A stretch of DNA of 64,000 nt from an uncultured archaeon (GTDB lineage: Archaea; Aenigmatarchaeota; Aenigmatarchaeia; CG10238-14; SCSR01): NCBI GenBank assembly GCA_964539655.1, contig CAZIJH010000004.1, positions 14,925 to 78,924 of the forward strand, in the 5' to 3' direction. The notes beneath the pieces were generated by a model that was not told the origin of the DNA, ran no database searches, and saw only the letters and a list, made by a program, of their open reading frames with translations. Below are positions 3,685-53,023 of this stretch, one piece after another. Both the position numbers and the translations under genes were made by a program. Numbering within the stretch: position 1 is the stretch's first letter; every line of letters begins with the position of its first letter.

Positions 3685-3843
3685 ATGATTCGCAAAAATA
3701 GATTGTTTGAAGAATATCAAACTCTTTCTCAAGGTATCGCAAGGATGTCTTCTATTGTAAAGGATGCGAAGAGAGATGTTTTATTTATCGGCGAGAACGA
3801 GGAAATATTGAGAAGATTGTTGATCGGACTTATTAGGCAGTGA
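3685..3843 (+). CDS. hypothetical small protein (52 aa)
   Basis: Unlisted ORF MIRKNRLFEEYQTLSQGIARMSSIVKDAKRDVLFIGENEEILRRLLIGLIRQ. Weak call. Confidence 0.2.
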   Translation: MIRKNRLFEEYQTLSQGIARMSSIVKDAKRDVLFIGENEEILRRLLIGLIRQ

Positions 3844-4249
3844 GAGCTGAAATTTCTGATTCCTTTGATTTTTTAATCTTAACTTGCCTTAAATTTTCAA
3901 TATACACCAAAAGGGTATCACACAATTCATATGCAGCTTGTATTTCGTATAGCGGAAACTTTGTTCGGCCTCCCGAGTATGCCTTGCACATACTGAAAAC
4001 ATTTTTGTCGTTACCCACGATGTTAGGGATTTCCTCATCGTGAGCGTCAAGCCATGCACTAACGATTGGTATTCTATCGGAAAATATTGATGCGGCATAC
4101 GCAGCAGTCTCCAGCATTCTTGAATCCACATTTTTGCATTCAACTTCCTGCCAAAATGTATGATTTTTTCCTAATGTTTCGTATAACTTATGAAAATACT
4201 TGGATGTTTTTGCAATTCTTTTATTTAGCTTCTCGTCGTTGACAGACAT
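3833..4249 (-). CDS. hypothetical protein
   Basis: 138-aa ORF, no motif recognised. Confidence 0.45.
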   Translation of the reverse strand: MSVNDEKLNKRIAKTSKYFHKLYETLGKNHTFWQEVECKNVDSRMLETAAYAASIFSDRIPIVSAWLDAHDEEIPNIVGNDKNVFSMCKAYSGGRTKFPLYEIQAAYELCDTLLVYIENLRQVKIKKSKESEISALTA

Positions 4250-5068: not shown

Positions 5069-5142
5069 GGACCCGTAGCTTAGCCTGGTGGAGCATCCGA
5101 CTGATAATCGGGAGGCCGAGAGTTCAAATCTCTCCGGGTCCA
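5069..5142 (+). tRNA. tRNA-Ile (anticodon GAU)
   Basis: GGACCCGTAGCTTAGCCTGGTGGAGCATCCGACTGATAATCGGGAGGCCGAGAGTTCAAATCTCTCCGGGTCCA has acceptor GGACCCG/CGGGTCC, anticodon loop CTGATAA and T-loop TTCAAAT. Confidence 0.85.
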
Positions 5143-5186
5143 TGACTTATAACTTACGGGAGTAGAGTTCCGGTAGACTACAATAC
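5143..5186 (+). repeat. left-end block of cassette unit 1, homologous to 6348..6391
   Basis: tgacttataacttacgggagtagagttccggtagactacaatac versus taaataacttacgggagtagaatgccgatagaattagtgtatac. Both copies begin immediately after a copy of ctccgggtccat. Confidence 0.5.
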
Positions 5187-5237
5187 TAGAGTCAAAGTTC
5201 GAATGATAATTTTAAGAATATGTATTCTAATTCTTGA

Positions 5238-6206
5238 TTGATGGTGAATATTACTAGCTTTGTTGTCGGTGCGAAGTGTTTTTTCGACGCTGATAAATCA
5301 GGAACAGATTTGGTCCCAAAAATTAATTCACTTATTGCGCAAAAGATGATTGGCAGAGGATTCTCGACAGATGACAATGTTGATTTGTTTCGAGGCATAC
5401 CAACTTTTATGATGCGATTCTACGCTAATCCAACTAAGCATAATCCTCCTCTTGTGATGAGAATTAAGAAGGGTCTCGGCATCATTAATCAGGAGGAATT
5501 AGACGATAAAGTCTTCTTTGATGCATTGAGTAGACTTGTTGATGAGCATCCACATAAGATATCATTCTCGATTAAAATCGGCCAGATTTCCAACAACAGG
5601 AATGGTTACCTGATAAAGATAGAAACTGAACCAGCAATAGTTGCAAAGAAGAGGAATTTGGGAATTGAACCGCGTGTAAATGCTACTCGTTACAACGAAA
5701 TTATCGACTATAACAAGAAACTTGTTCACGAAATAATCAATGAATTGGGGGCAGGCATTCTTGAAGAGCCTAAGGTGCTCGCGCCACTTGATAAGATATT
5801 ACCGGATAATTTGTTTGAAGAAAATTTCATGACAGATTTACCCAGAGAAGTAGCTGAATGTTTAACAGAGGTCAACAAATGTTTTTCGAATGATTGCTAC
5901 ATTGCGTCCTCAATTATGATACGAAAAGCATTGGAAGTTGCCGTTACCAAAAAACTCGATCAAGCGGGTCGGGGAAAGAAATTATTCGATGATAATGGAG
6001 ACGAGATTTCGTTGAAAAGAAAACTCAATCTATTACCAGAAGTTGCTCCCAATATCAAAAAAGATTTGGAAGCAATCAAGATAGTCAAATGGTTCGGAGA
6101 TAAGAGTGCACACAGTCCGAACAATCCTATTTTTGCAAAAGACATAGAACAAAACATCGTGCCGAAGATTAGATATTTCCTGATAAATCTAGGTTTAAAG
6201 AAATAG
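5238..6206 (+). CDS. protein with a C-terminal DUF4145-like domain (defence/Abi-associated domain family)
   Basis: The C-terminal ~110 aa (CYIASSIMIRKALEVAVTKKL...IKIVKWFGDKSAHSP...IVPKIRYFL) resemble DUF4145, which occurs at the C-termini of HsdR and Abi-like proteins. The N-terminal ~200 aa are unknown. Confidence 0.55.
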   Translation: MMVNITSFVVGAKCFFDADKSGTDLVPKINSLIAQKMIGRGFSTDDNVDLFRGIPTFMMRFYANPTKHNPPLVMRIKKGLGIINQEELDDKVFFDALSRLVDEHPHKISFSIKIGQISNNRNGYLIKIETEPAIVAKKRNLGIEPRVNATRYNEIIDYNKKLVHEIINELGAGILEEPKVLAPLDKILPDNLFEENFMTDLPREVAECLTEVNKCFSNDCYIASSIMIRKALEVAVTKKLDQAGRGKKLFDDNGDEISLKRKLNLLPEVAPNIKKDLEAIKIVKWFGDKSAHSPNNPIFAKDIEQNIVPKIRYFLINLGLKK

Positions 6207-6240
6207 AGACAACGCCGACTTCATTGTAATGTGTACATAA

Positions 6241-6347
6241 TTCCGCTAGAATAGCTAACTATTTATTTTTACACACACAATATTTCAAAACAAGCCGCAG
6301 ATTATGGCAAGAGACTTTAACTTAGGGTCGGTAACGCTCCGGGTCCA
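6241..6347 (+). repeat. conserved ~107-nt right-end block of cassette unit 1, ending in a copy of the tRNA-Ile 3' terminus
   Basis: attccgctagaatagctaactatttatttttac...atatttcaaaacaagcc.cagatt...ttaact.gggtcgg.aac.ctccgggtcca is near-identical to 6877..6984. The last 11 nt equal tRNA-Ile positions 5132-5142. Confidence 0.7.
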
Positions 6348-6391
6348 TAAATAACTTACGGGAGTAGAATGCCGATAGAATTAGTGTATAC
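6348..6391 (+). repeat. left-end block of cassette unit 2, homologous to 5143..5186
   Basis: See 5143..5186. Confidence 0.5.
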
Positions 6392-6437
6392 AAAAATAGT
6401 TGATTGCTTTATTAAGAGAAGTTTTTAAAAATTTAAT

Positions 6438-6845
6438 ATGGTAGATAGACAGAATATTAAACTCAATAATTTGATGTTTCTTGCTCTTGACCATGGTATA
6501 GATTCGATAAAAGCAGGTGGTCCATTAATATCTTTTGTAATTACAGAATCTAAAGGTAAACGCAATATCAAACGATTTGTGACCAAAAGATTAGAAGATG
6601 GTCAAAAAGAAGCAACACAATTTGTTTCTACATCAAAATCTAAAATAGACAGATACGCACTTGCTTATGACGGCTATGTAACAATAGAAAATAAAAAGTA
6701 TAGTGCTATAATTGTTCGGGCAGGAGAGCACGGAGATAAAGAATCAATGTTGATATGTCAAAGATATAGCCCAAAAAAATTTCTACACAAATTTGAAGTA
6801 ATAGGTAATCCAGCAATGATTGGAAATCAAAAAAATCTTCTTTAA
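6438..6845 (+). CDS. hypothetical protein (cargo of cassette unit 2)
   Basis: 135-aa ORF with no recognisable motif, lying between the repeat blocks. Confidence 0.45.
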   Translation: MVDRQNIKLNNLMFLALDHGIDSIKAGGPLISFVITESKGKRNIKRFVTKRLEDGQKEATQFVSTSKSKIDRYALAYDGYVTIENKKYSAIIVRAGEHGDKESMLICQRYSPKKFLHKFEVIGNPAMIGNQKNLL

Positions 6846-6876
6846 ATTATTCTTTACACGAATGTGTGTGAATGAC

Positions 6877-6984
6877 ATTCCGCTAGAATAGCTAACTATT
6901 TATTTTTACGCGGCCAATATTTCAAAACAAGCCACAGATTTGTCGCGGAGAGCTTAACTTTGGGTCGGCAACACTCCGGGTCCA
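6877..6984 (+). repeat. second copy of the ~107-nt block, ending in ctccgggtcca
   Basis: Direct repeat of 6241..6347, again terminated by the 11-nt tRNA-Ile 3' end (6974-6984). Confidence 0.7.
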
Positions 6985-7011: not shown

Positions 7012-7221
7012 ATGAAGAACGACGAATGCGTAATCTATGTTTACGGCCCTAAAGGCCGCTTGTTGCAAAAATACAGTAAGATAAAAGATATCTGGACCCA
7101 GACGACTATTTCTAACGGCAAAGTCAGAACAATGACTGCCGAACAGTTGTTGTCGCATCTGTTGCCGCCACTTGCTGGAGCGAGCGGTGCAAAAATAAAA
7201 GTCGTGAAGAAAAAAATCTAA
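7012..7221 (+). CDS. hypothetical small protein
   Basis: 69-aa ORF preceded by GGTGA, directly distal to the second repeat. Confidence 0.3.
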   Translation: MKNDECVIYVYGPKGRLLQKYSKIKDIWTQTTISNGKVRTMTAEQLLSHLLPPLAGASGAKIKVVKKKI

Positions 7222-7228
7222 ATGATCT

Positions 7229-7894
7229 TCATTTGCCCGACAATGTGTAGTTCTTTTTCGGAATCATTTCTAATCTTCTATTTAAAACGTATCTGGCATT
7301 CCTTTTTGCTTTCTTGCTAGATGTGCTCGGCTGATTCATCGTCTCAGTTAAAAATCTCAAATCAATTAGATACGGCATCTTATTCGTGTCAGACTTTAAT
7401 GGCATACATAAAGTCAAAATTAGTAGCCTGCTTGAAATTGTCGGCATCGCAAAAATTTCAAAATCAGCCGCGCATTTTCCAAATTCCCTTTCCGTGTTAA
7501 TCTTTCCGTGAATGTAGACGTCATCGGCTGTTCCGAGATAGATAGCGGGTTTTGCCTCCATCATTTTGATGTTATTGTTGTCGTATATTCTGTGCTGCGG
7601 AGATTGGTTCCTGAGATAATCTATCCTCCAAGAATAGTCTGCGTCCATTTCTCTGTTGGAGAAGCAGCTGTAAACGTCTTCCGGATTTGCCGGGAATCTT
7701 ACAGACATCAATTTTTTCGAAGATTCGTCCGCATTTCTATACATCTTCATTATTCTGTGCGCAGGAGGAACCTCCCGAAAAAGTGATTCTACCATGTTTG
7801 CGGGCAATTTTATTGCATCTATGATCTTTGCGACTTTCATGCGATTCAAAATAAATCCGAATTGAAAAAATTTAAGCAACAATGTTATGGTCAT
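7229..7894 (-). CDS. hypothetical protein co-oriented with and abutting the Ku/ligase genes
   Basis: 221 aa, end-to-end with the ligase gene. No LigD polymerase or phosphoesterase motif could be recognised by eye. Confidence 0.45.
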   Translation of the reverse strand: MTITLLLKFFQFGFILNRMKVAKIIDAIKLPANMVESLFREVPPAHRIMKMYRNADESSKKLMSVRFPANPEDVYSCFSNREMDADYSWRIDYLRNQSPQHRIYDNNNIKMMEAKPAIYLGTADDVYIHGKINTEREFGKCAADFEIFAMPTISSRLLILTLCMPLKSDTNKMPYLIDLRFLTETMNQPSTSSKKAKRNARYVLNRRLEMIPKKNYTLSGK

Positions 7895-8892
7895 TTGAAT
7901 GAAACTTCTTCCAAATTTTCATCGAGCGTGCATTCTTCTGGCAGCTTGTCCGTCCTTAATCTTTTGAAGGAAGGTGCCCTGAATTTCAGATTCCTGTTCA
8001 GGTGCAAAAATTCAACTTCGGCGACCAGTTCGGGCCTAACCCATTTCGTCTTGCTCAGGATGGAAGGTATTTCTTGGATTGGCTGGTCACCGAACGGATT
8101 TTTATCCGTCTCCAAATTTCTGACCTTGTCGGATATCGCGGAGTATCCCTGCTCGTCCAGTCCTGTGCCCACCCGGCCGAGATAGTGAAACTTCCTTTTG
8201 AAAAAAATTGCGCACAGCAGGGCCCCGAAGTATTTCGCCCGCCATCCTTCTCCTCTTGTGTACCCGACTATCACGCAATCGAGCGTCCGCAGAGTCTTGA
8301 ATTTTTTCCAGTCATTGGAACGTCGTCCTGTCTGGTAGCTCGAATCGATGCGCTTCGCCATCACTCCCTCGAAATTTTTCTCCTTTGCCAGTTTGAACAA
8401 TTTTTTCCCTTCGCCGAAAACGTGGAAAGATATCAGGAATATTTTGTTCGCTACTACTGTTTCCTGGAGGATTTTTTTCCTTTCCAAAATCGGAAGATCG
8501 GTCAAGTCCTTTCCGTCCTTGTGCAGAATGTCGAAGACGACATAAGTCGCTGGATAGATTTTGGACATCAGCTCTATCCTTGTCCTGTCTCCCGTAAGCT
8601 CCCTGCTCGCAAGCAATGAGAAATCGGGCTTCCCGTTTTTGAAAACTACTATCTCTCCGTCGAGGATGACGCGCTTTGCGTTTATGTCCTTCCATATGTT
8701 TTTGAATTCCGGATACCTTCCCTCGAAATAGTTGAACCTCCTGTTCAGCAGTTTGAGCGACTTGTTCTCCGTATCGATGTAGCTGATCGTCCTCGTGCCG
8801 TCGAACTTCAGCTCGAAAATGAATTTCTCGTCGTCGAACGGCTTTGAAATAAATGCCAGCATCGGTTTTATTTCTTGCCCCCACAGCGACAT
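7891..8892 (-). CDS. ATP-dependent DNA ligase (LigD-like ligase domain)
   Basis: Motif I ELKFDGTR (KxDGxR adenylation lysine), an OB-domain region, and a length typical of stand-alone LigD ligase domains. The track ORF starts at a TTG (8904); the first ATG gives MSLWGQ at 8892. Confidence 0.8.
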   Translation of the reverse strand: MSLWGQEIKPMLAFISKPFDDEKFIFELKFDGTRTISYIDTENKSLKLLNRRFNYFEGRYPEFKNIWKDINAKRVILDGEIVVFKNGKPDFSLLASRELTGDRTRIELMSKIYPATYVVFDILHKDGKDLTDLPILERKKILQETVVANKIFLISFHVFGEGKKLFKLAKEKNFEGVMAKRIDSSYQTGRRSNDWKKFKTLRTLDCVIVGYTRGEGWRAKYFGALLCAIFFKRKFHYLGRVGTGLDEQGYSAISDKVRNLETDKNPFGDQPIQEIPSILSKTKWVRPELVAEVEFLHLNRNLKFRAPSFKRLRTDKLPEECTLDENLEEVSFK

Positions 8893-8907
8893 TATAATCA
8901 ACAAAAA

Positions 8908-9699
8908 TTATTTTTTCCTTTTCTTTTTCGCGGATTCTACGCTGATCTTCAATGCCTCCATCAGATTCTTAGTCTCTGCAACCTTCTCTTCCTTGTACGC
9001 GAAAATCCTGCCTTCTGATTTTGCCTTTATCAAATCCTTCAACGCTTTTGTGTATGCGTCATTGAATCTTGACGCATCGAAATTTTCAACCACCAAATTT
9101 TCAACCAGCATCTTCGCGAGATCGAGTTCCTCTTTTTTTGTCTGGACCAATTCCTGAAGTTCCGGCAGCTCGTTGATGTTTCTGAGCTCGTCCGCGTAAT
9201 GCAGGATGTGCATGACAAGCCCGTTCTTGTACGGCCTCAGGGAAATGATGTATTCCTTGTCCCTCATCACGACTTTTCCGATCGCCGCCTTGTTTGTCAG
9301 CCTCATGACTTCGATGAAAAGCGAGTAGGCTTTTTCGCCCTGTTTGTCAGGCACGACATAATAAGATTTCTCGAAAAATATTGGATCTATCTGAGATACG
9401 TCAACGAATTCCTGCACGTCGATCATTTTTGTGGTCTTCGGCTTGACCTTCTGTATGTCATCCCTGCTTACGGCGACTATTTTATCTCTCGTTATCCTGT
9501 ATCCTTTCTCTATTTCGTTCCATTGCACCTCGTGCCCTTCAGGGCACCATCTCTTGTAGCTCAGCTGCTCATGATGCTCCTGACATAGCATGCTGAAATT
9601 TATTCTATTGTCGTCCGCCGCGGCGTACACCCTGACGGGTATTAGAACCATTCCGAATGATATGGAGCCTGTGAAGATCGCCCTCGCCACGTACGACAT
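8908..9699 (-). CDS. ku: Ku protein (non-homologous end joining)
   Basis: AIFTGSISFGMVLIPVRVY is the hallmark Ku N-terminus, with an acidic/basic C-terminal tail. The likely start MSYVARAI is at 9699; the track ORF extends to 9783. Confidence 0.8.
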   Translation of the reverse strand: MSYVARAIFTGSISFGMVLIPVRVYAAADDNRINFSMLCQEHHEQLSYKRWCPEGHEVQWNEIEKGYRITRDKIVAVSRDDIQKVKPKTTKMIDVQEFVDVSQIDPIFFEKSYYVVPDKQGEKAYSLFIEVMRLTNKAAIGKVVMRDKEYIISLRPYKNGLVMHILHYADELRNINELPELQELVQTKKEELDLAKMLVENLVVENFDASRFNDAYTKALKDLIKAKSEGRIFAYKEEKVAETKNLMEALKISVESAKKKRKK

Positions 9700-9802
9700 C
9701 GGCACGATCTTTTTTCCCTGAGCCACCGCTATTAGAGTGATGGAATTCGGATATAAAATTTTTCTTAAAATAAGATGGGACAACGCGTCATTTGATTAAA
9801 TT

Positions 9803-10447
9803 TTATTCTCCGGACCATTCCTGCTGCCTGTCGAATAAGATGTCGTGGTATTCCCAGTACTTGCCTTGCTCGCCGGCGCACTTGCTAGCTTCCGCTGCCT
9901 GGTACGACAGCTTGTGGAAGTTCAGCGGGAAATCCCTGTAATAGATTTTCACTTTGCCTTCGTAGTCCTGCAAAATCTGTTTCAACGTCAATTCTGCTTT
10001 CGCGCAGAACGGGCACTGGTAGTCAGAAAATTCAACGATTGTGACGTTTGCATTCGCTGACCCGAGCGGCGGATTCGTTCCTGTCCCTATCTGTGGATTT
10101 GCTGACGGATTCGAGAGTTCCGAATCGATTATTGATTTGAAATTTTCCAAAGGAACCGCGCCGACAAGATTTTTTCCGTTGATGAAAAATGTCGGGGTGC
10201 CTTCCACTCCATATGATTTCCCGTCACTGATATCGCTCTGTATTTCGGAATTGTATTTGTTTGTTGTCAGGCAAGTGCTGAATTGGTCTACGTCAAGTCC
10301 GAGTTCGCTTGCATACTGCCCGAATTTTGGAGAGATGACTGCGGGCTTCTGCTGCTGAAGTAAAAAGTATCCGCTGACGATTATCGTTAACAATATTAGT
10401 AATCCGACGTAGTGCTGGATTTTCAATTTCATTTTATCAATACTCAT
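9803..10447 (-). CDS. DsbA-like thiol:disulfide oxidoreductase, membrane-anchored, apparently circularly permuted
   Basis: N-terminal TM anchor. Then come the C-terminal-type DsbA elements (ELGLDVDQF...GVEGTPTFFINGK), a Pro/Gly-rich linker, and only then the N-terminal-type element VTIVEFSDYQCPFCAKAE with its CxxC, followed by the start of the helical domain. Confidence 0.75.
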   Translation of the reverse strand: MSIDKMKLKIQHYVGLLILLTIIVSGYFLLQQQKPAVISPKFGQYASELGLDVDQFSTCLTTNKYNSEIQSDISDGKSYGVEGTPTFFINGKNLVGAVPLENFKSIIDSELSNPSANPQIGTGTNPPLGSANANVTIVEFSDYQCPFCAKAELTLKQILQDYEGKVKIYYRDFPLNFHKLSYQAAEASKCAGEQGKYWEYHDILFDRQQEWSGE

Positions 10448-10473
10448 TGACGACGTGCTTGCTTAAATCTTAT

Positions 10474-10722
10474 TCAAAAGCATTGCTGGTATCTGTCAGG
10501 ATGGTGTGACATGTGCTCCTGCCATTCCGCGTCCGTGTATCCCGCGGGAGTCTGGCATATGTCGTTCGAGTTCTCGCTCGATATGGCTTTCTGGTAATTC
10601 AGGCCGTACTTGCCGAATACAAAAGTGTATGCGACTATGGAAAAAACAACGATGGTAATTATCAGAATTGCAGTCGTCATGGATACGGTCTTTTCTGATT
10701 TTTTCTTTTTCATATTACACAA
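10474..10722 (-). CDS. small membrane/secreted protein
   Basis: 82 aa with one TM helix and a His-rich C-terminus (HMSHHPDRYQQC). Confidence 0.35.
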   Translation of the reverse strand: MCNMKKKKSEKTVSMTTAILIITIVVFSIVAYTFVFGKYGLNYQKAISSENSNDICQTPAGYTDAEWQEHMSHHPDRYQQCF

Positions 10723-11110
10723 CTCCCAACGGAACTATATTCGCGTACAGCGATATGAAGCTTGCAACCATCACGAAGATGTTGAACGCCAGCCAGAAAT
10801 TTTGGCTACCCGTGAACTTCATTTTGCACGTTTTCTTTTTCCACATGTAAAATCCGATCGCCACGCTAGCGGAGGCAAGTCCCATTATCGAGAAGAACAG
10901 GCTGTAATCCTGCAAAAAAAGCAGCGGCATCCCAGTGACCACTATCCCGAAAGTTGCCAGAAAAACAATCACCACTTCGCATGCGACATGACAGATATTA
11001 TGCAAGCCGAGTATTCCCAGTCCTCCGCTAACTCCGCCAAAGATTCCGATGCTTTTCGTTTCCTTGATTTCATTTTTGCCTCTCGGCTTTTTTATTTTTC
11101 CATGCAGCAT
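10715..11110 (-). CDS. integral membrane protein with a Cys pair (CHVAC)
   Basis: 131 aa with 3-4 predicted TM helices, in a thiol-redox/metal neighbourhood. Confidence 0.4.
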   Translation of the reverse strand: MLHGKIKKPRGKNEIKETKSIGIFGGVSGGLGILGLHNICHVACEVVIVFLATFGIVVTGMPLLFLQDYSLFFSIMGLASASVAIGFYMWKKKTCKMKFTGSQNFWLAFNIFVMVASFISLYANIVPLGVV

Positions 11111-11210
11111 ACTACCACGTCTTCCAGAGTTTTTTTCAATTTCGCAGCCCAGCTTTTATTTTTCTTTTTCTCGATTTTTTTCTTCAGATTTTCAAGCATC
11201 GACATTCAAA

Positions 11211-11609
11211 TCATTCCTCTTTAGAGTTGGGCTTGTTCAAACACCAGAACAGGCTGTACAGGTCGAACGCGCTCTTCTCAAGTTTCATCGCTTCGTTGTT
11301 GTCCTTTCCCATGTACTTCGTCGAGCTCTCCATCAGGCGCATTGTCGCAGAGAGCAAGTGCTTGCTTATGCACCAGAGCTCCCCGTTCGGAGAGCCGATC
11401 AGTTTTTTTAAAAGTTCTACGCGAAGCTTGCGCACTTCCTGCAGAACGTCGAGGTACATGTCGTTCCCCGTCTTCATAGAAGTGAACGCGAGATGCTCCT
11501 CGACTGCGATGAGATTCATAATCGCTATGCTCAGGTCTTCCTTGTAAGTAAGGTCGACCTTTGCCTCGTCCGATATTTTTTTGTTGTCTTCCTCGCTCAA
11601 GCCGTCCAC
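11211..11609 (-). CDS. hypothetical protein
   Basis: 132 aa, acidic, no motif. Confidence 0.4.
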   Translation of the reverse strand: MDGLSEEDNKKISDEAKVDLTYKEDLSIAIMNLIAVEEHLAFTSMKTGNDMYLDVLQEVRKLRVELLKKLIGSPNGELWCISKHLLSATMRLMESSTKYMGKDNNEAMKLEKSAFDLYSLFWCLNKPNSKEE

Positions 11610-12148
11610 CCCATTGCATAAAACATCCCGGCGCTTATCGAAAGCAGAGCTATGGCGAGTACGATCGCCTGGAACGGAACGTAATTTTTGTTCCCGTTAT
11701 TTTTTCTCAACATATCATGCAACGCGAACGCCGCAACTGTGACAACGCTTCCGATAGTCGCCCCGACAAACAATTTGTCAATACCGAAAAGCATGAACTT
11801 AGGGACGCTACTGCCAAGGAACCCTGCGAAATAAAATGTCGCGACAACCGATATGTACGACAAAAGGATTATTATCGGGAGCTGGAATTTGATGTAGCCG
11901 CTTCCTTTGGATTTTTTGTTCAGCCAGTTGTTGATCCAGTAGCCCGTCGATATTATCAGCCCGCCTACGAAAGTGCTGACAATAAGATCGTCGATTCCGT
12001 ACCATCTAGCCGCCAGGACGGCCGCTCCGGTCGCCGCAGTGCAAAGAGGGCAGTGCGCCATGACGAAATTGGAAAATAGAGGTATCGATAACAGAGAAGA
12101 AATTAAGAAAATTCCAAACATTGCAATTTTGTTTTTTGTTTTTTCCAT
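11597..12148 (-). CDS. integral membrane protein with a CPLC motif
   Basis: Likely start MEKTKNK at 12148; the track ORF carries a spurious N-terminal extension. Multi-TM, with a HCPLCTAATGAA motif. Confidence 0.5.
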   Translation of the reverse strand: MEKTKNKIAMFGIFLISSLLSIPLFSNFVMAHCPLCTAATGAAVLAARWYGIDDLIVSTFVGGLIISTGYWINNWLNKKSKGSGYIKFQLPIIILLSYISVVATFYFAGFLGSSVPKFMLFGIDKLFVGATIGSVVTVAAFALHDMLRKNNGNKNYVPFQAIVLAIALLSISAGMFYAMGWTA

Positions 12149-12162
12149 TTCTAGTTCACCTT

Positions 12163-12336
12163 TTAATGGCAGCAGTTCGAGTGGTCGTGATGATCGCCCG
12201 ACTTTCCCTGGAATTCTTTCACGCATTCCTCGCTGCAGAATTTCTTGCCCTCTGCTTCGATCGCTTTCATGTCCTTCGTGATCTTCATCTTGCACACAGG
12301 GCAAGTTGCATTTCCGAAACTTATTCCGAATACCAT
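12163..12336 (-). CDS. small TRASH/YHS-like metal-binding protein (57 aa)
   Basis: Unlisted ORF MVFGISFGNATCPVCKMKITKDMKAIEAEGKKFCSEECVKEFQGKSGDHHDHSNCCH. It has CPVC...FCSEEC spacing like TRASH/YHS domains and a His/Cys-rich tail. An RBS-like GGTGA lies upstream. Confidence 0.55.
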   Translation of the reverse strand: MVFGISFGNATCPVCKMKITKDMKAIEAEGKKFCSEECVKEFQGKSGDHHDHSNCCH

Positions 12337-12348
12337 TCTTGTTTCACC

Positions 12349-12783
12349 TTAGTGCATGCTGTCCATGCTCGGAGTAGCGATTGTTCTTGTTATTTTCGCG
12401 TTTCCTTCCGAGTCAAGTATGTCGAGGAACACCTTTTCCTCACCGTACATGTGAAGGCAGGGCTGTACCGCCATCCTGTGTGAGTAATGGAAATTGAGCA
12501 CGCCGAATTCCTTGGTCCTGATTCCGGCATCGCATTGGGTAACGTCGTTACCTATGCAATTTGCGTCGTATGTCGTGAATCCCTCAACGGTTCCTGGAAC
12601 GAGATTCTTTCCGTCCGTGATTTTTCCCATGAAAATGTTCAACGGATTGTCACCAGGATTTCCCTGATAGGAGCTCATTCCAGTCGGAACGTATATCTTC
12701 GTCAGCATGTAGCCAGTTACCGCTACCAGCACGACTATCACTACCAAGCTTATCGCAGTGCTGTTCTTGAGTTCGATTTTCAT
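12349..12783 (-). CDS. secreted/membrane-anchored hypothetical protein
   Basis: 144 aa with an N-terminal TM/signal segment and several Cys and His residues. Confidence 0.45.
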   Translation of the reverse strand: MKIELKNSTAISLVVIVVLVAVTGYMLTKIYVPTGMSSYQGNPGDNPLNIFMGKITDGKNLVPGTVEGFTTYDANCIGNDVTQCDAGIRTKEFGVLNFHYSHRMAVQPCLHMYGEEKVFLDILDSEGNAKITRTIATPSMDSMH

Positions 12784-12849
12784 AACAAATTGATTAAAAA
12801 AACAGCATATAAAATAATATGTGAAACTAGTTTCACCTAGTAATTCATT

Positions 12850-13338
12850 TTATTTTGTCACAATTACGTTTGACATTCCTCTTCTTCTTCTTTCAACAAG
12901 TCCTTTGGTTTCTAATTTATCAAGCAAACGGGTGACTTTCACTTTATTCATTCCACTTCTTTCTACCAACTCATTCTGAAAAATAAGTCCGTCACTGTTT
13001 CCGATAAGTTCGTAGATTTTTTTCTCGTCTCCTTCAAGATTTTTCACAACTTTTTTCCATCTCTGCTGGCTTTCGACAACAGTTCTTTCAGACTGCCTTC
13101 TGCTCAAAATCAGCAAGGCTCCAAATCCGCCGAGACCGAAATCAACTATGTATCCGAGCACAGCGGGAATCGGTATGTTCGCCCTGAAGGGGCATATGTT
13201 GTCGGGCAGATCGCAGTCCTTGTGCAGAAGGGCCTGCAAAGAAAGTATCTCGTTCACCATGAAGGAATGTATAAGGAAAATCGTAACGGCTATCCCAATG
13301 AGCATCCATCCTATAGTTTTCGAGTTAATTGATTCCAT
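12850..13338 (-). CDS. membrane-anchored winged-helix transcriptional regulator
   Basis: Two N-terminal TM helices plus a C-terminal wHTH (IYELIGNSDGLIFQNELVERSGMNKVKVTRLLDKLETKGLVERRRRG). Confidence 0.55.
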   Translation of the reverse strand: MESINSKTIGWMLIGIAVTIFLIHSFMVNEILSLQALLHKDCDLPDNICPFRANIPIPAVLGYIVDFGLGGFGALLILSRRQSERTVVESQQRWKKVVKNLEGDEKKIYELIGNSDGLIFQNELVERSGMNKVKVTRLLDKLETKGLVERRRRGMSNVIVTK

Positions 13339-20061: not shown

Positions 20062-21009
20062 ATGAGAATTATTTTGAAAAAAGGTAAGCAAAAAGAACTG
20101 ATTGATTTAACCAAATCAAAATTATCTTTATCATGGTCAGAATTGGGAAGGCTCCTTGGAATTAAACCCAATTATTTGAGTGGTGATTTGCGATTTGAAA
20201 ATGTCACAATCAGCGATCAATTATATAAAAATTTGTCAAGAATGAGCGATGTTAATTTTGATAATTTCATTGAAAAAAAAGTTCCTAACAATTGGGGGCG
20301 AATAAAAGGAGGGAAGTTATCTACTCATAGACAGCGTCCTCGAAAGTTACTCATTAAACAACATTCTAGTAATCTTGCAGAAGCTATTGGTATAATTTTA
20401 GGTGATGGTAGTTTGTATAACAATAAAAAACATGGAATCAACCAATTAGTTGTAACTGGCCATATCAAAAATGATCAAATATATTTGTCTAAATTTGTGA
20501 AGCCGCTTTTTGAAAATTTGTTTAATTTAAAATTTAGTATTAAAAAAGATAACAAAAAACATGTAATAAGAATTTACAGCCAAAAGAAAGATGTTTTATA
20601 TACTTTAGAAAAACTTGGCATACCGATTGGAAATAAAATAAAGAATGATGTTGGAATACCGAATTGGATATTTTCGTCAAAAGATTTCGTTAAATCATGC
20701 ATACGTGGTATTGTCGACACTGACGGTTCTGTATTCCCAATAACTGGAAGAAACTATACATATGTAGAAATTACATCCGCTTGCAAAAATTTAAGAAAAT
20801 CTATAGACCAAAGCATGAAAATAATTGGATTAAAAACATCCAAATGGACCAAAAATGGAACTCCAAAAATTTATATAGCAAACAAACGAGATATTTCTCG
20901 CTATTACAATGAAGTGGGATTTAATAACCCATATCATAAAAATAGATTTAAGCTCCTATCGTCTAGTCCGGTCAAACAAAGCCGAAAGGACGCCGGGCTT
21001 TCGATCTAA
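20062..21009 (+). CDS. LAGLIDADG homing endonuclease, free-standing, with an N-terminal HTH-like domain
   Basis: Two LAGLIDADG motifs (AIGIILGDGSLY, IRGIVDTDGSVF) spaced ~110 aa apart. The ORF has no stop before 21009, so its last ~19 codons overlap the 5' part of the downstream tRNA. Confidence 0.7.
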   Translation: MRIILKKGKQKELIDLTKSKLSLSWSELGRLLGIKPNYLSGDLRFENVTISDQLYKNLSRMSDVNFDNFIEKKVPNNWGRIKGGKLSTHRQRPRKLLIKQHSSNLAEAIGIILGDGSLYNNKKHGINQLVVTGHIKNDQIYLSKFVKPLFENLFNLKFSIKKDNKKHVIRIYSQKKDVLYTLEKLGIPIGNKIKNDVGIPNWIFSSKDFVKSCIRGIVDTDGSVFPITGRNYTYVEITSACKNLRKSIDQSMKIIGLKTSKWTKNGTPKIYIANKRDISRYYNEVGFNNPYHKNRFKLLSSSPVKQSRKDAGLSI

Positions 21010-21079
21010 AAGCGAAAGCTTCGAAAAAAAAGATGAGAGAAGAAATCCGGCAACCCGGGTTCAAATCCCGGTGGGAGCA
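20952..21079 (+). tRNA. tRNA-Glu (anticodon UUC) with a ~41-nt anticodon-loop intron and extra nucleotides in the D-arm region
   Basis: Acceptor GCTCCTA/TGGGAGC+A, D-loop AGTCCGGTCAA, anticodon stem-loop CCGGG-CTTTCGA, then an insertion 21004-21044, then TCCGG, variable CAAC, and T-arm CCGGG-TTCAAAT-CCCGG. A T-run follows. About 12 extra nt between the D-loop and the anticodon stem are unexplained (possibly a second non-canonical intron). Confidence 0.55.
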
Positions 21080-33838: not shown

Positions 33839-36800
33839 GTGGAGACAGCTAAAATATGCCTGGCTCTTCTTTTTATTTTCGTGATTTTGCCGAAACCTGG
33901 CCTGGGTGCGAATCCTGTTCCTTCGCCGATGGATAGTCTGTTCGGAAAAAATCTTTACAAGGCGATCATCCATGTCAACGCGGCCGACAAGGGCGAGATC
34001 AGCGCGTACTATCACAAGAATTTCGCCGGGTACGGCGACAACGGTTTCGACGCAGTCTTTTTCACTCTAGACGACAACCTGATGAATATAACAAGCGAGG
34101 AGCCGTACAACGGCGGATTCGAATCATTCACTTCATGGTCGTCAAAGGAGTCCACCGTTCCCGGCGAATATGTCGGAGAGAAAAGTTCGGCAAAATATCT
34201 GAGAGGCGGCAATTCTTTGCACGCGTCCGCGAAAGTTTCCGGCGAGAATTTCGGATACGCAGGCGCGTACCAGGACATGCTCTGGCAGGTTTCGGCCGTC
34301 GCGGCGGACTTGAATTTCAACTTCTCGATCTACCCTGTCGCGATGGATAACAAGACCGAATTTCCTGATTCGCTGTTTGCCGTAGAGTTCGGTTTCAATT
34401 ACTACAATTCGAGGAACTACACGCCGAAGATGGTGCTGCTTTTCCAGGAAAATTCTTCCGAGACATTTTCGGACGGGTCGCCATTCTCAAACGACTTCGA
34501 CACGGTCTACCACGTGATGAATCCGCAGGACCAATTGAAATTCAACTTGTGGAACACCTTCAGCCTGAACCTCACTGATTTGATTGTAAATTATTACGGA
34601 AGCGAAAAGGCTCTCAACCTGAAGATCAACAACATCGGGATATACGCGTACAGCCGCAACGGCGCCGATTCCGAATTTTATGCCGACGTCGTGAAGCTTT
34701 CCGGCAACAACGCAGTCCAAGAGACTTTTTCAACGCTGACGGGCTCGATAAAAAATTACGACAGCCAGGAGCTGAGGATGGTTCCGGGAGAGAGACTGGA
34801 AATGCAGAACGTCATGCTGTATCTCAACAAACAAGATTATTTCCAGAAGGCGGGATACGGAGTCGACAACACAAGGAAAACAATCAAAATGGCGCATGAC
34901 GACGGAGGCTATCTTTTTGTTTCAAAGCCTGACAGCAGCGCAGAATACAGGACAAACATGTTCGAAAACCTTTGGCCGGTCGACGGGATGGCCGTGTACT
35001 TTTCAAGAAACATGGGACGCGAAGGCTTCGCAACCGACATCTGGGATTATTATCTTACGAACGGAATTTTTGCGCAGGGGATTGCCGAAGCCCATCCGAT
35101 GTACGTCAGCGACGCGGAATCGTACGCGAAATGGCTGCCCGCGCAGTACGTGTATGCAGATGACAATTCTCCGGAGAGCATAGTCGAGGCTCTGGCGCAG
35201 GGAAGGAGCTTCGTGGAGCGCAACAGGGCGAAGGTTCCAATGATGATTTTTTTCTCCGCAGAAAACAGCCAAGTTCCTGCGGGAAAATTCCCCGTCTACG
35301 TCGACTCGAGCAGGGACGAAGCCGTCCTCGATATAGAGCTGACAAATATTCCGCCCGAGGCGAAAATTCTTAGGCTGATAAGAAACGGTACTTTTTTGTC
35401 AGACGAGCCCATATCCGGAACTTCTTTCAGCAAAACATACACGCCGTCGCTGCCGGACAAATCTAATTATTTCAGGATCGAGATTTTGAATTCGTCGAGC
35501 GTCATGGCGTTCAGCAATCCGATAGTGTACATAAAGAAAAACATTGATCCGGATATCTGGATGGCTCTCGCCCCCTCTCTCCAGCAGGGATCCGCGAGTT
35601 CGTCGATAGAATCCATAAGTTATTCCGGAAAAAATCTCAGCTTCGTTGTGAAATCCAAGCGGGACGTTTCAGTCACCACGAAAATATTTTCCGAAAAGCC
35701 TCCGTCAGAGGTGATGAATGCGGAGAGCTGGGACTACGATCCTGCCGCGAAAATAGTTAGAGTCGAGACTGCTGGAAAAAATTCCGACAAAACAATTGTT
35801 TCTTTTGACAGTAAGCACAATCGTGCGCCGACATGGAAGGACAATTCGACTTCTCCGCTGAATCCTACGTTCTATTTTGCAAATGCGGAATACAACTTCC
35901 GTATATCGTGGGAAGACGATGACGGAATCGGCGAAGTCGTTTTTGAACTGAACGGGGCTAATTTTACCGTTGAAGGGAACGGAGATTATTCCTTTGCCGC
36001 GAAAGATTTGGCTGCTGGGAATTATGAGTACAGATGGTATGCAAGAGACGCAATGGGGATGTGGAATTACACTCCGATCCAGAATTACGAGATTAAAAAA
36101 TCTCCGATAAATTTGGTCACGCTGTTCCTGAACGGCTTGGCAAATTCCGATGCGACAACGTACGAATCGGAAATAAACGCGACGGCAATTTCACAGTCTG
36201 GCAAACCTTTCCTGTGGCGCGACGGGAAAAATGTGGGAAATCCCGAAATTGAAAATCTTCCTGCCGGAAAATATTTGTACAAGGCAAATGCAAGTGGAAA
36301 TGAAAATTACAGTTCTAACCACGATGGGGTTTCTTTCTACTTTACGATTGACAAAGATTTCACGGACACCGATCCGCCGAAACTGAACTCTCATTCGATC
36401 GAAGCCTTTATGGAAGGCGGAAAAGTTTTTGTGAATGTCACTGCTTTTTGGTCGGACAATTTGGAGATAAGCGAAAATTTGATCGAGGAAAATTTTACGG
36501 GAATTGTCCGAAATACTACGATGGAAAACCAATTTGTCCAACCAGTAGACCAAGGCGAATTTCTGTTCAGACTGCTGGCGAACGACACGTCCAACAATTT
36601 TAATGCGACCGATTTCACCGCAGCGGTAGTCGACATCCAGGCCGGAAAAGTTTTCGTCAATTTCAGCGGGTTCGGAGGGGACATAACTTACGAATTCGTT
36701 ACGAAAAATCAGACGGAGCCTGAAAATAAAAATACGACTTCCTATTTCCAAATTTTGTCCGACGGAAAAATCCTAAATGCGACGGTGATTATCGAAAGTT

Positions 36801-37585
36801 ATTCGCAGGAGGATATTCCCCAGAACAGCGAAACGCTGCGGTTGAACAAATTTATAGGAGTGCTGATTTTGAACGAGGTTTCGGACGGATGGTCCATAGT
36901 GAAAATCTATTACGATGATTCGGAAGTTTCGTTGTCCGGAATTGACGAGAGATCATTGAGGATATGGGAATTGTATCCTGAAAAAAAATCCTGGTACAAG
37001 TTCGATTCTCCCGACGGCAATGTTGACACGAATAACAATATCGTCTGGGCGAACGTCTCGAATTCTGGAATTTACGGCGTGTTTGGTTCGGTGCATCAGG
37101 AAGAACCTGTCCAAGGTTCTCAGCCGAGTTCGTCTGGCGGAAGCGGTGGAGGAGTCGGCGGGGGCGGAAGTGGAGGAAATGTCGCGGGAAAAATTGAAAA
37201 GGAATCGCCACCAGATGAAGAAACAACTGACGAAAATATAAAGAATGACAAAAAAGACGAAAATGAAAATATTCGGGAATCAAAATCAGAAGAAGCCACT
37301 GACCACGACAACAAACCTTCTGAAAAATCGGAAAAGAATGTCCAATCAATAGCTCCGACGGGATTTTTTTTCTTTGTTCAGCCAAACTTGGGGATAATTT
37401 TCAGTGGAGCAGCACTGGCAACGGCTGCATTCATAGTTTACGGTAAAAATTTCCTGCCGAAATCAAATGGTGAAATTTTAGATCTTGCAAAGGAAAGATG
37501 GCGAAAAATTTGCAAAAAGTTGAAGTCGTTTGTCAGCAAAGGAAGGGCTCAGAAAACAATAGATTTATATATCACTAAGGAGTAG
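33839..37585 (+). CDS. large secreted surface (S-layer-like) glycoprotein candidate with a C-terminal TM anchor
   Basis: GTG start with a signal peptide, many N-x-S/T sequons, and a Gly/Ser-rich linker (SSSGGSGGGVGGGGSGGN). An acidic/Lys-rich spacer, a single TM helix preceded by PTGFFFF, and a ~50-aa basic cytoplasmic tail complete the protein. Confidence 0.65.
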   Translation: METAKICLALLFIFVILPKPGLGANPVPSPMDSLFGKNLYKAIIHVNAADKGEISAYYHKNFAGYGDNGFDAVFFTLDDNLMNITSEEPYNGGFESFTSWSSKESTVPGEYVGEKSSAKYLRGGNSLHASAKVSGENFGYAGAYQDMLWQVSAVAADLNFNFSIYPVAMDNKTEFPDSLFAVEFGFNYYNSRNYTPKMVLLFQENSSETFSDGSPFSNDFDTVYHVMNPQDQLKFNLWNTFSLNLTDLIVNYYGSEKALNLKINNIGIYAYSRNGADSEFYADVVKLSGNNAVQETFSTLTGSIKNYDSQELRMVPGERLEMQNVMLYLNKQDYFQKAGYGVDNTRKTIKMAHDDGGYLFVSKPDSSAEYRTNMFENLWPVDGMAVYFSRNMGREGFATDIWDYYLTNGIFAQGIAEAHPMYVSDAESYAKWLPAQYVYADDNSPESIVEALAQGRSFVERNRAKVPMMIFFSAENSQVPAGKFPVYVDSSRDEAVLDIELTNIPPEAKILRLIRNGTFLSDEPISGTSFSKTYTPSLPDKSNYFRIEILNSSSVMAFSNPIVYIKKNIDPDIWMALAPSLQQGSASSSIESISYSGKNLSFVVKSKRDVSVTTKIFSEKPPSEVMNAESWDYDPAAKIVRVETAGKNSDKTIVSFDSKHNRAPTWKDNSTSPLNPTFYFANAEYNFRISWEDDDGIGEVVFELNGANFTVEGNGDYSFAAKDLAAGNYEYRWYARDAMGMWNYTPIQNYEIKKSPINLVTLFLNGLANSDATTYESEINATAISQSGKPFLWRDGKNVGNPEIENLPAGKYLYKANASGNENYSSNHDGVSFYFTIDKDFTDTDPPKLNSHSIEAFMEGGKVFVNVTAFWSDNLEISENLIEENFTGIVRNTTMENQFVQPVDQGEFLFRLLANDTSNNFNATDFTAAVVDIQAGKVFVNFSGFGGDITYEFVTKNQTEPENKNTTSYFQILSDGKILNATVIIESYSQEDIPQNSETLRLNKFIGVLILNEVSDGWSIVKIYYDDSEVSLSGIDERSLRIWELYPEKKSWYKFDSPDGNVDTNNNIVWANVSNSGIYGVFGSVHQEEPVQGSQPSSSGGSGGGVGGGGSGGNVAGKIEKESPPDEETTDENIKNDKKDENENIRESKSEEATDHDNKPSEKSEKNVQSIAPTGFFFFVQPNLGIIFSGAALATAAFIVYGKNFLPKSNGEILDLAKERWRKICKKLKSFVSKGRAQKTIDLYITKE

Positions 37586-49441: not shown

Positions 49442-50962
49442 TTGAATTACGCTTTTAATTACAAGGTGATTTGTTTCACGGCAGCGAAGAAGAAAAAATT
49501 CTACATAACGACCGCAATCGCGTACACTAATGGCCCGCCACACATGGGTCACGCCTACCAGTTCATCGTGTCTGATGTAATCGCACGCTGGCATCGTCTT
49601 AAAGGAGAGGATGTATTTTTCTTGACGGGTACGGATGAATACGGTACCAAGCTGCAGAAGACGGCAGAAAAAATGGGGATATCTCCTCAGCAGCTCACTG
49701 ATCAGAATACTGAAAAATTCAGGGAGATTGACAAACTGCTCGACATTTCGTTCGACAATTTTATCAGGACGACGGACAAAAAGGTCCATTGGCCGACTGC
49801 ACAGAAGATTTGGGCCACGCTCGTGAAAAGCGGGGACATCTACAAAAAGAAATACAGGGGGCTGTATTGTTCCGGCTGCGAGGGATTCAAGACGGAAAAG
49901 GAATTGGTAAACGGACTGTGTCCTGAACACCAGAAGGCTCCCGAGATTTTCGAGGAGGAAAATTATTTTTTCAAGCTCACGAAATACACGAAAAGGATTG
50001 CTGAATTGATCGAGAACAAAGATATTCTTTTGCTGCCGGAATCCAGAAAACATGAGGCGCTGAACATTTTGAAAAATATAGACGACATTAGCTTCTCTCG
50101 TTCCGTATCCGCACTCGAATGGGGAATCCCAGTTCCCGGCGACGATTCGCAAGTGATCTACGTATGGTGCGACGCGCTGACAAATTATCTTTCCGGAATA
50201 GGTTTCACTTCAAACCCGAAGAATTTTAAAAAATATTGGCCGGCTGATTTGCACATACTTGGGAAAGACAATCTGAAATTCCACACAATATTTTGGCCTG
50301 CGATGCTGCTTTCCGCTAAATTGAAATTGCCTAAAAAAATATTCGTGCACGGATTCGTGACATCGGGAGGGCTGAAGATGAGCAAAAGCATAGGCAACGT
50401 GATAGACCCGTTGAAGATGCTGAAAAAATACGGCACGGAACCTCTGCGGTATTTTCTGGCGAGAGAAATAATTTTCGGGGAAGACGGAGACTTTTCAGAA
50501 CAGTCGTTAATCAACAGAGTGAATGGCGAGCTTGCTTCGGATTTGGGAAATCTCGTCTATCGTGCTTTGTCTCTTGCGGAAAAATACAAGGGACCGGTTG
50601 CGGGCAAAAAGGAATTAGAAAGAAGATTGGACATTTCGAAAATCGAAAAATCTTTCGACGAATTAAAAATCAACGAAGGATTGGAAGAGATCTGGAATTT
50701 CATCCGAGCGACAAACAAGTACATCAACGAAAACGAGCCTTGGAAGCTGGAAGGAAAAGAATTGGGAAACGTGATCTACAATCTTCTCGAATCCCTGAGA
50801 ATAATTTCGATTTTGGTTTCTCCCTTCCTGCCAGACACCAGCAGAAAAATTAACGAACAGATTGGCGTGAAATCTGGAAAACTGAAAGATTGTAAATTCA
50901 AAAAATTCTTGGGCAAGGTAAAGAAAGGTGAAATACTTTTTAAGAAAATAGAGGATTCCTAA
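49442..50962 (+). CDS. metG: methionyl-tRNA synthetase (catalytic core, no C-terminal tRNA-binding domain)
   Basis: HMGHAY, a CSGC zinc knuckle, and KMSKS. Confidence 0.9.
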   Translation: MNYAFNYKVICFTAAKKKKFYITTAIAYTNGPPHMGHAYQFIVSDVIARWHRLKGEDVFFLTGTDEYGTKLQKTAEKMGISPQQLTDQNTEKFREIDKLLDISFDNFIRTTDKKVHWPTAQKIWATLVKSGDIYKKKYRGLYCSGCEGFKTEKELVNGLCPEHQKAPEIFEEENYFFKLTKYTKRIAELIENKDILLLPESRKHEALNILKNIDDISFSRSVSALEWGIPVPGDDSQVIYVWCDALTNYLSGIGFTSNPKNFKKYWPADLHILGKDNLKFHTIFWPAMLLSAKLKLPKKIFVHGFVTSGGLKMSKSIGNVIDPLKMLKKYGTEPLRYFLAREIIFGEDGDFSEQSLINRVNGELASDLGNLVYRALSLAEKYKGPVAGKKELERRLDISKIEKSFDELKINEGLEEIWNFIRATNKYINENEPWKLEGKELGNVIYNLLESLRIISILVSPFLPDTSRKINEQIGVKSGKLKDCKFKKFLGKVKKGEILFKKIEDS

Positions 50963-52927: not shown

Positions 52928-53023
52928 CGCCCAGGATGGGATTTGAACCCACAAGAGCTTGCGCTCGCAGCGTTTCAGTAAATTTTTCCAGCGCTGTGCC
53001 ATACCGGGTTAGGCGACCTGGGC
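52928..53023 (-). tRNA. tRNA-Ser (anticodon GGA) with a ~12-nt anticodon-loop intron
   Basis: Reverse complement GCCCAGG...CAGCG-CTGGAA-[AAATTTACTGAA]-A-CGCTG, a long variable arm CGAGCGCAAGCTCTT, T-arm GTGGG-TTCAAAT-CCCAT, and acceptor CCTGGGC+G. Confidence 0.6.

Follow-up and report, generated by a model that had tools for sequence, protein, structure and literature searches.

Adjacent genes for Ku and a stand-alone NHEJ-type ligase in a DPANN-like archaeal contig, followed by an orphan open reading frame

We analysed a stretch of 64,000 nucleotides of contig CAZIJH010000004.1 (the 64-kb window, by which we mean this whole stretch), whose minus strand carries a gene for Ku and, directly after it, a gene for an ATP-dependent DNA ligase of the type used for non-homologous end joining (NHEJ). 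A third, co-oriented open reading frame (ORF) begins at the end of the ligase gene. These features are listed below, together with two A/T-rich boxes located 5' of the Ku gene and of the third ORF, in the coordinates of the window.

8908..9726, minus strand: Ku gene, of the bacterial/archaeal single-domain type; 272 aa if started at GTG 9726, 263 aa if started at ATG 9699
8893..8907, minus strand: spacer between Ku and ligase; 15 nt, with no promoter-like box
7891..8892, minus strand: NHEJ-type ATP-dependent DNA ligase, stand-alone; 333 aa, with no domain besides nucleotidyltransferase and OB
7229..7894, minus strand: orphan ORF; 221 aa from ATG 7894 or 203 aa from ATG 7840
9751..9758, minus strand: TATA-like box TTTTATAT; 25-32 nt 5' of the Ku GTG at 9726, read by eye
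7865..7876, minus strand: box CTTAAATTTTTT; 25-36 nt 5' of ATG 7840 and just past the ligase stop, including a run of six T, read by eye

Ku is an ordinary member of the prokaryotic Ku family (TIGR02772 / PF02735). Its open frame extends from 8908 to 9783 on the minus strand, and the translation, which contains AIFTGSISFGMVLIPVRVY, scored 260.5 bits against the TIGR02772 Ku_bact model (cut-off 150), with profile positions 1-259 of 259 covered, and 154 bits against PF02735 (4.4e-45; cut-off 25). The Ku domain was the sole Pfam domain of this protein of 263-272 aa, which has no vWA or SAP domain, and its C-terminus, as read from the translation, is basic and Lys-rich (…SAKKKRKK). The nearest solved structures were those of bacterial Ku proteins (9vnq, 8v53 and 9i91). 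Two start codons are candidates: GTG 9726 was chosen by the gene caller and ATG 9699 agrees with the N-termini of the aligned homologues. An A/T box is found at the same distance 5' of many other genes of the window, and the TATA-like box at 9751..9758 is probably the promoter from which Ku-ligase is transcribed, with a short leader or none.

The ligase is likewise an ordinary member of its family, the NHEJ ligase domain (TIGR02779 NHEJ_ligase_lig), for which it scored 256.5 bits with an equivalog-domain cut-off of 227.75; it also matched PF01068 (4e-32) and PF04679 (8.2e-22). Its open frame is 7891-8904 and the ATG start at 8892 (MSLWGQ...) is common to its homologues. Motifs I (KFDGTR), III (DGEIVV), IIIa (VVFDIL), IV (EGVMAK), V (WKKFK) and VI (RAPSFKRLRTDK) were all read in the translation, and the best solved relative was the ligase domain of Mycobacterium tuberculosis LigD (1vs0, 8e-38). 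The protein has no N-terminal DNA-binding domain and aligns only from residue ~220-290 onwards of Lig1-type chains of 550-690 aa. Full-length LigD models were failed by it (TIGR02776: 203 bits for a cut-off of 373, the ligase part alone being aligned), and a Pfam scan of the ligase found neither PF21686 nor PF13298, hence no fused polymerase domain (PolDom) or phosphoesterase domain (PE).

An earlier, sequence-only reading of this DNA had announced an adjacent, co-oriented pair of a bacterial-type Ku and an ATP-dependent ligase with KFDGTR as its motif I, and this was borne out, since both proteins exceeded curated NCBIfam cut-offs. It had also placed the two genes 16 nt apart; the close spacing held, and the exact figure had to be corrected by a trivial one nucleotide. 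The 15-nt spacer is without a promoter-like box, and Ku and ligase are probably co-transcribed.

The contig that carries the pair is assigned to a DPANN-like archaeon (Aenigmatarchaeota). The best named matches of the methionyl-tRNA synthetase (MetRS) encoded at 49442-50962 were proteins of Aenigmatarchaeota, with 54-68% identity, and archaeal-type DUF1512 and TackOD1 domains were found in the window. Among the 120 best matches of Ku, most of those that are named came from metagenome-assembled genomes (MAGs) of Aenigmatarchaeota/Aenigmarchaeota. The description of the genome as archaeal-looking in the earlier reading agrees with the neighbours of MetRS and of Ku, by both of which the contig is archaeal and not bacterial.

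The search for Ku returned 570 proteins at E <=1e-20, and the loci that we compared were drawn from species-representative genomes. The nearest loci were those of Aenigmatarchaeota, Woesearchaeota, Haiyanarchaeum and unclassified archaeal MAGs, followed by those of Nitrososphaeraceae and Thermoplasmata and then by those of bacteria. Ku was directly followed by the ligase in eight of the 11 related DPANN-type loci (L004, L005, L007, L008, L011, L014, L019 and L035), with gaps of 0-87 nt, and one or two genes were located between Ku and ligase in the other three. The inserted genes are unrelated (773 aa and 111 aa at 8902-11524 of L009, 257 aa at 3468-4241 of L010, and 173 aa at 1908-2429 of L013), and the Ku-ligase pair therefore tolerates splitting. 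The genes that surround the pair vary from locus to locus and include those for CTP synthase, an Obg-like GTPase, GatD/GatE and PheRS-like proteins. Ku-based NHEJ had been called sporadic in archaea; within the Aenigmatarchaeota-like DPANN clade, the Ku-ligase unit proved to be common.

Comparison of the window with the DPANN-type loci showed identities of 54-63% for Ku and 47-60% for the ligase, similar in magnitude to the 54-68% that MetRS shares with named Aenigmatarchaeota. In quick and rough neighbour-joining (NJ) trees of 37 sequences, the Ku and the ligase of the window were both placed within the DPANN clade, and the DPANN ligases formed a clade of their own along with the stand-alone ligases of Thermoplasmata. 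The G+C content at third codon positions (GC3) was 0.62 for both genes, at the host-gene end of the range of the window (median 0.55, standard deviation 0.10). A cluster of DsbA, Cys-rich membrane protein and MarR-like genes lies just 5' of Ku, and locus L007, from Aenigmatarchaeota, has homologues of these, 40-57% identical, at a distance of a few kb from its Ku-ligase. The recurrence of the pair, its conserved adjacency, its placement in the trees, its composition and this synteny argue for inheritance of Ku-ligase within the clade.

Hidden Markov models (HMMs) of PE and PolDom were built from the Pfam-delimited domains of Nitrososphaeraceae and bacterial LigD proteins. When all six frames of the 64-kb window were scanned, together with the ~8 kb around Ku in the DPANN loci and in two Thermoplasmata loci, neither model gave a match at E <=10. 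The PolDom HMM, when given a stand-alone Thermoplasmatota PolDom from outside its training set as a control, found it at 8.5e-72. The predicted DPANN Ku-ligase module is thus, locally, one of two genes with no linked PolDom or PE.

The third ORF can be read from either of two start codons. The reading from ATG 7894 has a 4-nt overlap (ATGA) with the ligase stop codon, and both versions of the ORF exist in public annotation, NCBI using the 7894 start and the Logan assemblies calling the 203-aa product from 7840. The 203-aa product has no clear transmembrane segment. The two Logan contigs show an identity of 99.97-100% to the window; the three differences all fall at 11228-11242, outside the three genes. 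The absence of any assignable motif from the 221-aa ORF, remarked upon by the sequence-only reading, was matched by the absence of hits in the family libraries: no family was found in Pfam, NCBIfam, PHROGs or PADLOC, and neither PF21686 nor PF13298 matched at E <=0.1. A sub-threshold Pfam match to PDZ_5 (E 0.047) was regarded as noise, and the sole match among PDB sequences, at E 0.97, as due to chance. Among 5.8 billion clustered proteins (word-indexed search) and 1.84 billion representatives (exhaustive search by phmmer), the ORF matched nothing but itself. Scans with back-translated patterns gave no relative in IMG/VR or JGI metagenome contigs, and tblastn gave no paralogue in the window.

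That this ORF is not a gene, and is instead a frame left open by chance in DNA that is decaying, non-coding or once was mobile, is the alternative that survives best, and we regard it as unlikely. It would account for the lack of a homologue in every database searched and for the lack of a confident fold, the AlphaFold2 single-sequence model (predicted local distance difference score, pLDDT, 33.6; predicted template modelling score, pTM, 0.25) being too poor for a fold search. It would also suit the odd composition of the 203-aa version (7229-7840), whose G+C content at first codon positions (GC1, 0.36) is about two standard deviations below that of the genes of the window and whose product contains 2% Gly and 6.4% Met. 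However, when 64-kb sequences of the local composition were simulated, an ORF of at least 221 codons was obtained in 0 of 200 and one of at least 203 codons in 1 of 200. The frame of the ORF was also the best of the six by host codon usage (+0.118 bits per codon, compared with -0.20 or lower), within the range of the genes that have a Pfam match, and there is no longer gene on the opposite strand able to cast it as a shadow ORF. Because its length is beyond chance and its codon usage is host-like, the 221/203-aa ORF is probably a real gene.

If it is a gene, its product might be a novel, lineage-specific accessory factor of NHEJ, active in end processing or bridging, coupled to the ligase via the ATGA overlap and replacing Pol and PE. 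The sequence-only reading had similarly proposed it as the equivalent of one of these two enzymes or as a new partner. Such a role would be in keeping with the co-orientation of the ORF with the ligase and its 4-nt overlap with the ligase stop, with the failure to detect PolDom or PE in the window, and with the basic nature of the 203-aa product (pI 9.5), which is compatible with nucleic-acid binding. We nevertheless consider it very unlikely. The recommended comparison with PolDom and PE profiles was negative: the 221-aa ORF was not matched by our PE or PolDom HMMs, hhalign against these purpose-built profiles gave probabilities of 0.3% for PE and 0.1% for PolDom, and neither the PE motif HxDxRxE nor the Pol motifs DxD and SGxxGxH were found when the ORF was read directly. 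Moreover, neither a homologue of the ORF nor any conserved third gene was located 3' of the ligase in ten of the ten DPANN-type loci in which the contig continues past the ligase (the eleventh, L004, ends inside the ligase and was left out of this count). The genes at that position in the relatives are GatD, a thioredoxin-reductase-like gene, a gene for a 187-aa membrane protein and others, and the relatives evidently manage with the pair alone. Decay from the gene found next to the ligase, on its 3' side, in relatives was also considered as the source of the ORF, and this was rejected when no similarity to the ORFs of the archaeal loci was found at E <=1e-8.

Composition and the layout of the junction also speak against an accessory factor. 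The GC3 and GC1 of the 203-aa version are 0.47 and 0.36, unlike those of Ku and ligase, which are 0.62 and 0.46-0.48, respectively, and a TATA-like box with a T-run stands between the ligase stop and the start at 7840. The box is like the A/T boxes that precede many genes of the window at this distance; the closest of these, the near-identical block GTGCTTAAATCTTT, is located 5' of the gene at 3833-4249 (repeat families D3 and D7). The box at 7865..7876 could serve as the TATA-like box of a transcript of the 203-aa ORF, as an oligo-T terminator for Ku-ligase, or as both, and the 203-aa version probably has its own leaderless-type transcript, with a TATA-like promoter and a start at 7840. As judged from this comparison of loci, the 221-aa ORF is not a conserved partner of NHEJ.

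On the far side of the ORF there is a tRNA-Ile gene (5069-5142), after which come two units in tandem (5143-6347 and 6348-6984). Both start with ATAACTTACGGGAGTAGA and end in a block of ~108 nt which closes with an exact copy of the last 11 nt of the tRNA (6337-6347 and 6974-6984). Copies of CTCCGGGTCCA, when at most one mismatch was allowed, were found at 5132, 6337 and 6974 only, and neither the left nor the right end of the cassettes was found in the window beyond 6984. These cassettes look like the product of repeated site-specific integration at the tRNA, or like an integron-like array. The tRNA-Ile cassette array that had been reported some 250 nt from the three genes is therefore real, its last copy of the tRNA end being 245 nt from position 7229. 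If its limits are taken from the repeats, the array contains none of the 221-aa ORF, Ku, the ligase and a 69-aa ORF. The GC3 of the cassette genes was 0.18-0.38, no integrase was found in the array or with the three genes, and the GC content of the window is lowered between 5 and 8 kb.

The suggestion that Ku, the ligase and the 221-aa gene arrived jointly by horizontal transfer in this tRNA-Ile island is the most improbable of the alternatives: the genes do lie within 3 kb of a tRNA-Ile with two tandem cassettes bounded by attachment (att) repeats, beside or within the stretch of lower GC, and Ku is horizontally mobile among prokaryotes (PMC11936186), but the last att copy ends at 6984 and leaves all three genes outside, there is no integrase, the GC3 of Ku and ligase is host-like rather than cassette-like, both proteins group with DPANN homologues at MetRS-like identities, and the other flank of Ku is syntenic with an Aenigmatarchaeota genome, so that neither the comparison of GC nor the quick NJ phylogeny, which had been proposed as checks, pointed to a foreign origin of the pair. 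The orphan ORF sits in a lower-GC, variable stretch between the Ku-ligase module and the tRNA-Ile integration hot spot, and most likely it was left behind or carried in by mobile elements that passed through in the past, or is a gene that is young and evolves fast.

We therefore think it probable that Ku and the stand-alone LigD-type ligase constitute a minimal two-gene NHEJ module, typical of Aenigmatarchaeota-like DPANN archaea and inherited within that clade, and that the third ORF is a lineage-specific orphan with a different history. That DPANN archaea as a group would run a vertically inherited, two-protein end joining by Ku and ligase appears likelier than that the orphan would be an accessory factor. 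Several points weigh against this interpretation. The function of Ku-ligase in DPANN archaea is predicted from sequence, the placement of both proteins in the DPANN clade rests on quick NJ trees of 37 sequences, and the search for Pol and PE in this genome was confined to the 64-kb window. The ATGA overlap and the co-orientation with the ligase give the ORF the look of a translationally coupled operon member, and it is the 7894 start that the NCBI annotation uses. The promoter and terminator calls rest on the matching of A/T boxes by eye. Finally, the orphan status of the ORF is an absence of evidence, and the relatives compared all have a Ku identity of 63% or less, so that the comparison does not extend to conservation within the genus.

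The way in which such a module may act can be sketched from what is established for Ku/LigD in bacteria and for NHEJ in Methanocella paludicola. The ring of a Ku homodimer would thread onto the ends of a double-strand break and bridge them, and the C-terminal region of Ku, which ends in the Lys-rich tail, would recruit the stand-alone ligase. The ligase would be adenylated at the lysine of motif I (KFDGTR) and would seal the break via a lysine-AMP intermediate. With no linked Pol or PE, the system might join clean, ligatable ends only, or might depend upon unlinked enzymes for the processing of ends.

The known systems with which the pair was compared include the pairs of the Aenigmatarchaeota, Woesearchaeota and Haiyanarchaeum MAGs, which share the Ku-then-ligase order, sizes of ~260-270 and 320-330 aa, short spacers and identities of 47-63%, and which differ from the window in that the 221-aa ORF is found downstream in the window only. 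In Methanocella paludicola, according to the papers that cite the original work (Bartlett et al. 2013, cited in PMC7554672 and PMC12993045), the NHEJ proteins Ku, Lig, Pol and PE are encoded by separate genes. The window resembles this system in its archaeal host, its bacterial-type single-domain Ku and its stand-alone ligase gene next to Ku. It differs in that its module has two genes instead of four, no stand-alone PolDom or PE gene being detectable in the 64-kb window or, in the relatives from DPANN, at up to 8 kb from Ku, and in that its host is a DPANN archaeon and not a methanogen.

The bacterial Ku/LigD systems (Rv0937c/Rv0938 of Mycobacterium tuberculosis and YkoV/YkoU of Bacillus subtilis) belong to the same families, TIGR02772 and TIGR02779, and have Ku adjoining the ligase. 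However, the bacterial proteins are multi-domain, the LigD proteins that we scanned having, by Pfam, PE, ligase and PolDom (L028 and L070) or ligase and PolDom (L049), while the ligase of the window is the 333-aa domain alone. The NHEJ of Nitrososphaerales, which are terrestrial ammonia-oxidising archaea, has been reported to be acquired from bacteria (PMC7554672). Their archaeal Ku is 42-46% identical to that of the window, whereas their LigD is a fused PE-Lig-Pol protein, 880-1000 aa in length, which our rough tree put together with the LigD of bacteria.

In recent reviews, archaeal NHEJ is still called extremely rare, or known from Methanocella paludicola only (PMC7554672, PMC12993045). A Ku survey of 2025 (PMC11936186), which also calls it extremely rare, contained 19 archaeal sequences, none of them from DPANN. 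We found no discussion of Ku in DPANN archaea in the searchable literature. Since the literature is silent on DPANN Ku and calls archaeal NHEJ extremely rare, the clade-level pattern of Ku-ligase in DPANN is under-reported, even if public MAG records (NCBI) already give these genes the label 'Ku protein'. If a vertically inherited two-protein pathway of DPANN is real, archaeal NHEJ would be much wider than the picture of Methanocella only, and a compact Ku-ligase unit with no linked polymerase or phosphoesterase would, if functional, be the simplest cellular NHEJ system. It would then offer a repair option to symbionts with tiny genomes and possibly low ploidy, which may be without a template for homologous recombination. 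This significance attaches to the DPANN clade as a whole more than to the 64-kb window. The orphan gene would be of importance solely through a link to NHEJ, for which there is at present no positive evidence.

Several other features of the window were recorded. The cluster 5' of Ku is a co-oriented redox/metal cluster (9803-13338, minus strand) which encodes a DsbA-like protein, two membrane proteins with Cys motifs, a MarR/DUF7343 regulator and then a P-type ATPase with a YHS domain. The homologues of its first four genes (40-57% identity) are located at 12230-15149 of L007, in inverted orientation, and this common cluster could reflect a neighbourhood that has been conserved, or simply synteny that has persisted. 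The 69-aa ORF (7012-7221, plus strand) is convergent with the 221-aa ORF, their stop codons being 7 nt apart, and had no match in Pfam, PHROGs or PADLOC, no search for homologues having been made. The first cassette of the tRNA-Ile array (5143-6347) encodes a DUF4145 protein of 322 aa, and the second (6348-6984) encodes an orphan of 135 aa. The repeat at the cassette ends had no exact match in JGI metagenome or IMG/VR contigs, and both Logan assemblies break at the edge of the cassette repeat (6880).

An ORF of 1248 aa at 33839-37585 (plus strand) has host-like codon usage and no Pfam match. A tRNA of 96 nt at 52928-53023 (minus strand) was found by Rfam (41.9 bits) and missed by ARAGORN; intron-containing tRNAs are common in archaea, and this one probably contains an intron. 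The 3' half of a tRNA (T-arm and acceptor, GGGTTCAAATCCCGGTGGGAGCA) lies at 21040-21079 (plus strand), with no 5' half detected nearby, directly after an ORF with a LAGLIDADG domain (20062-21009) and in a stretch (19-22 kb) with a GC content of 0.30-0.35. This orphan half could be what is left of the att site of a further integrated element, or it could belong to a tRNA that is split or has a long intron.

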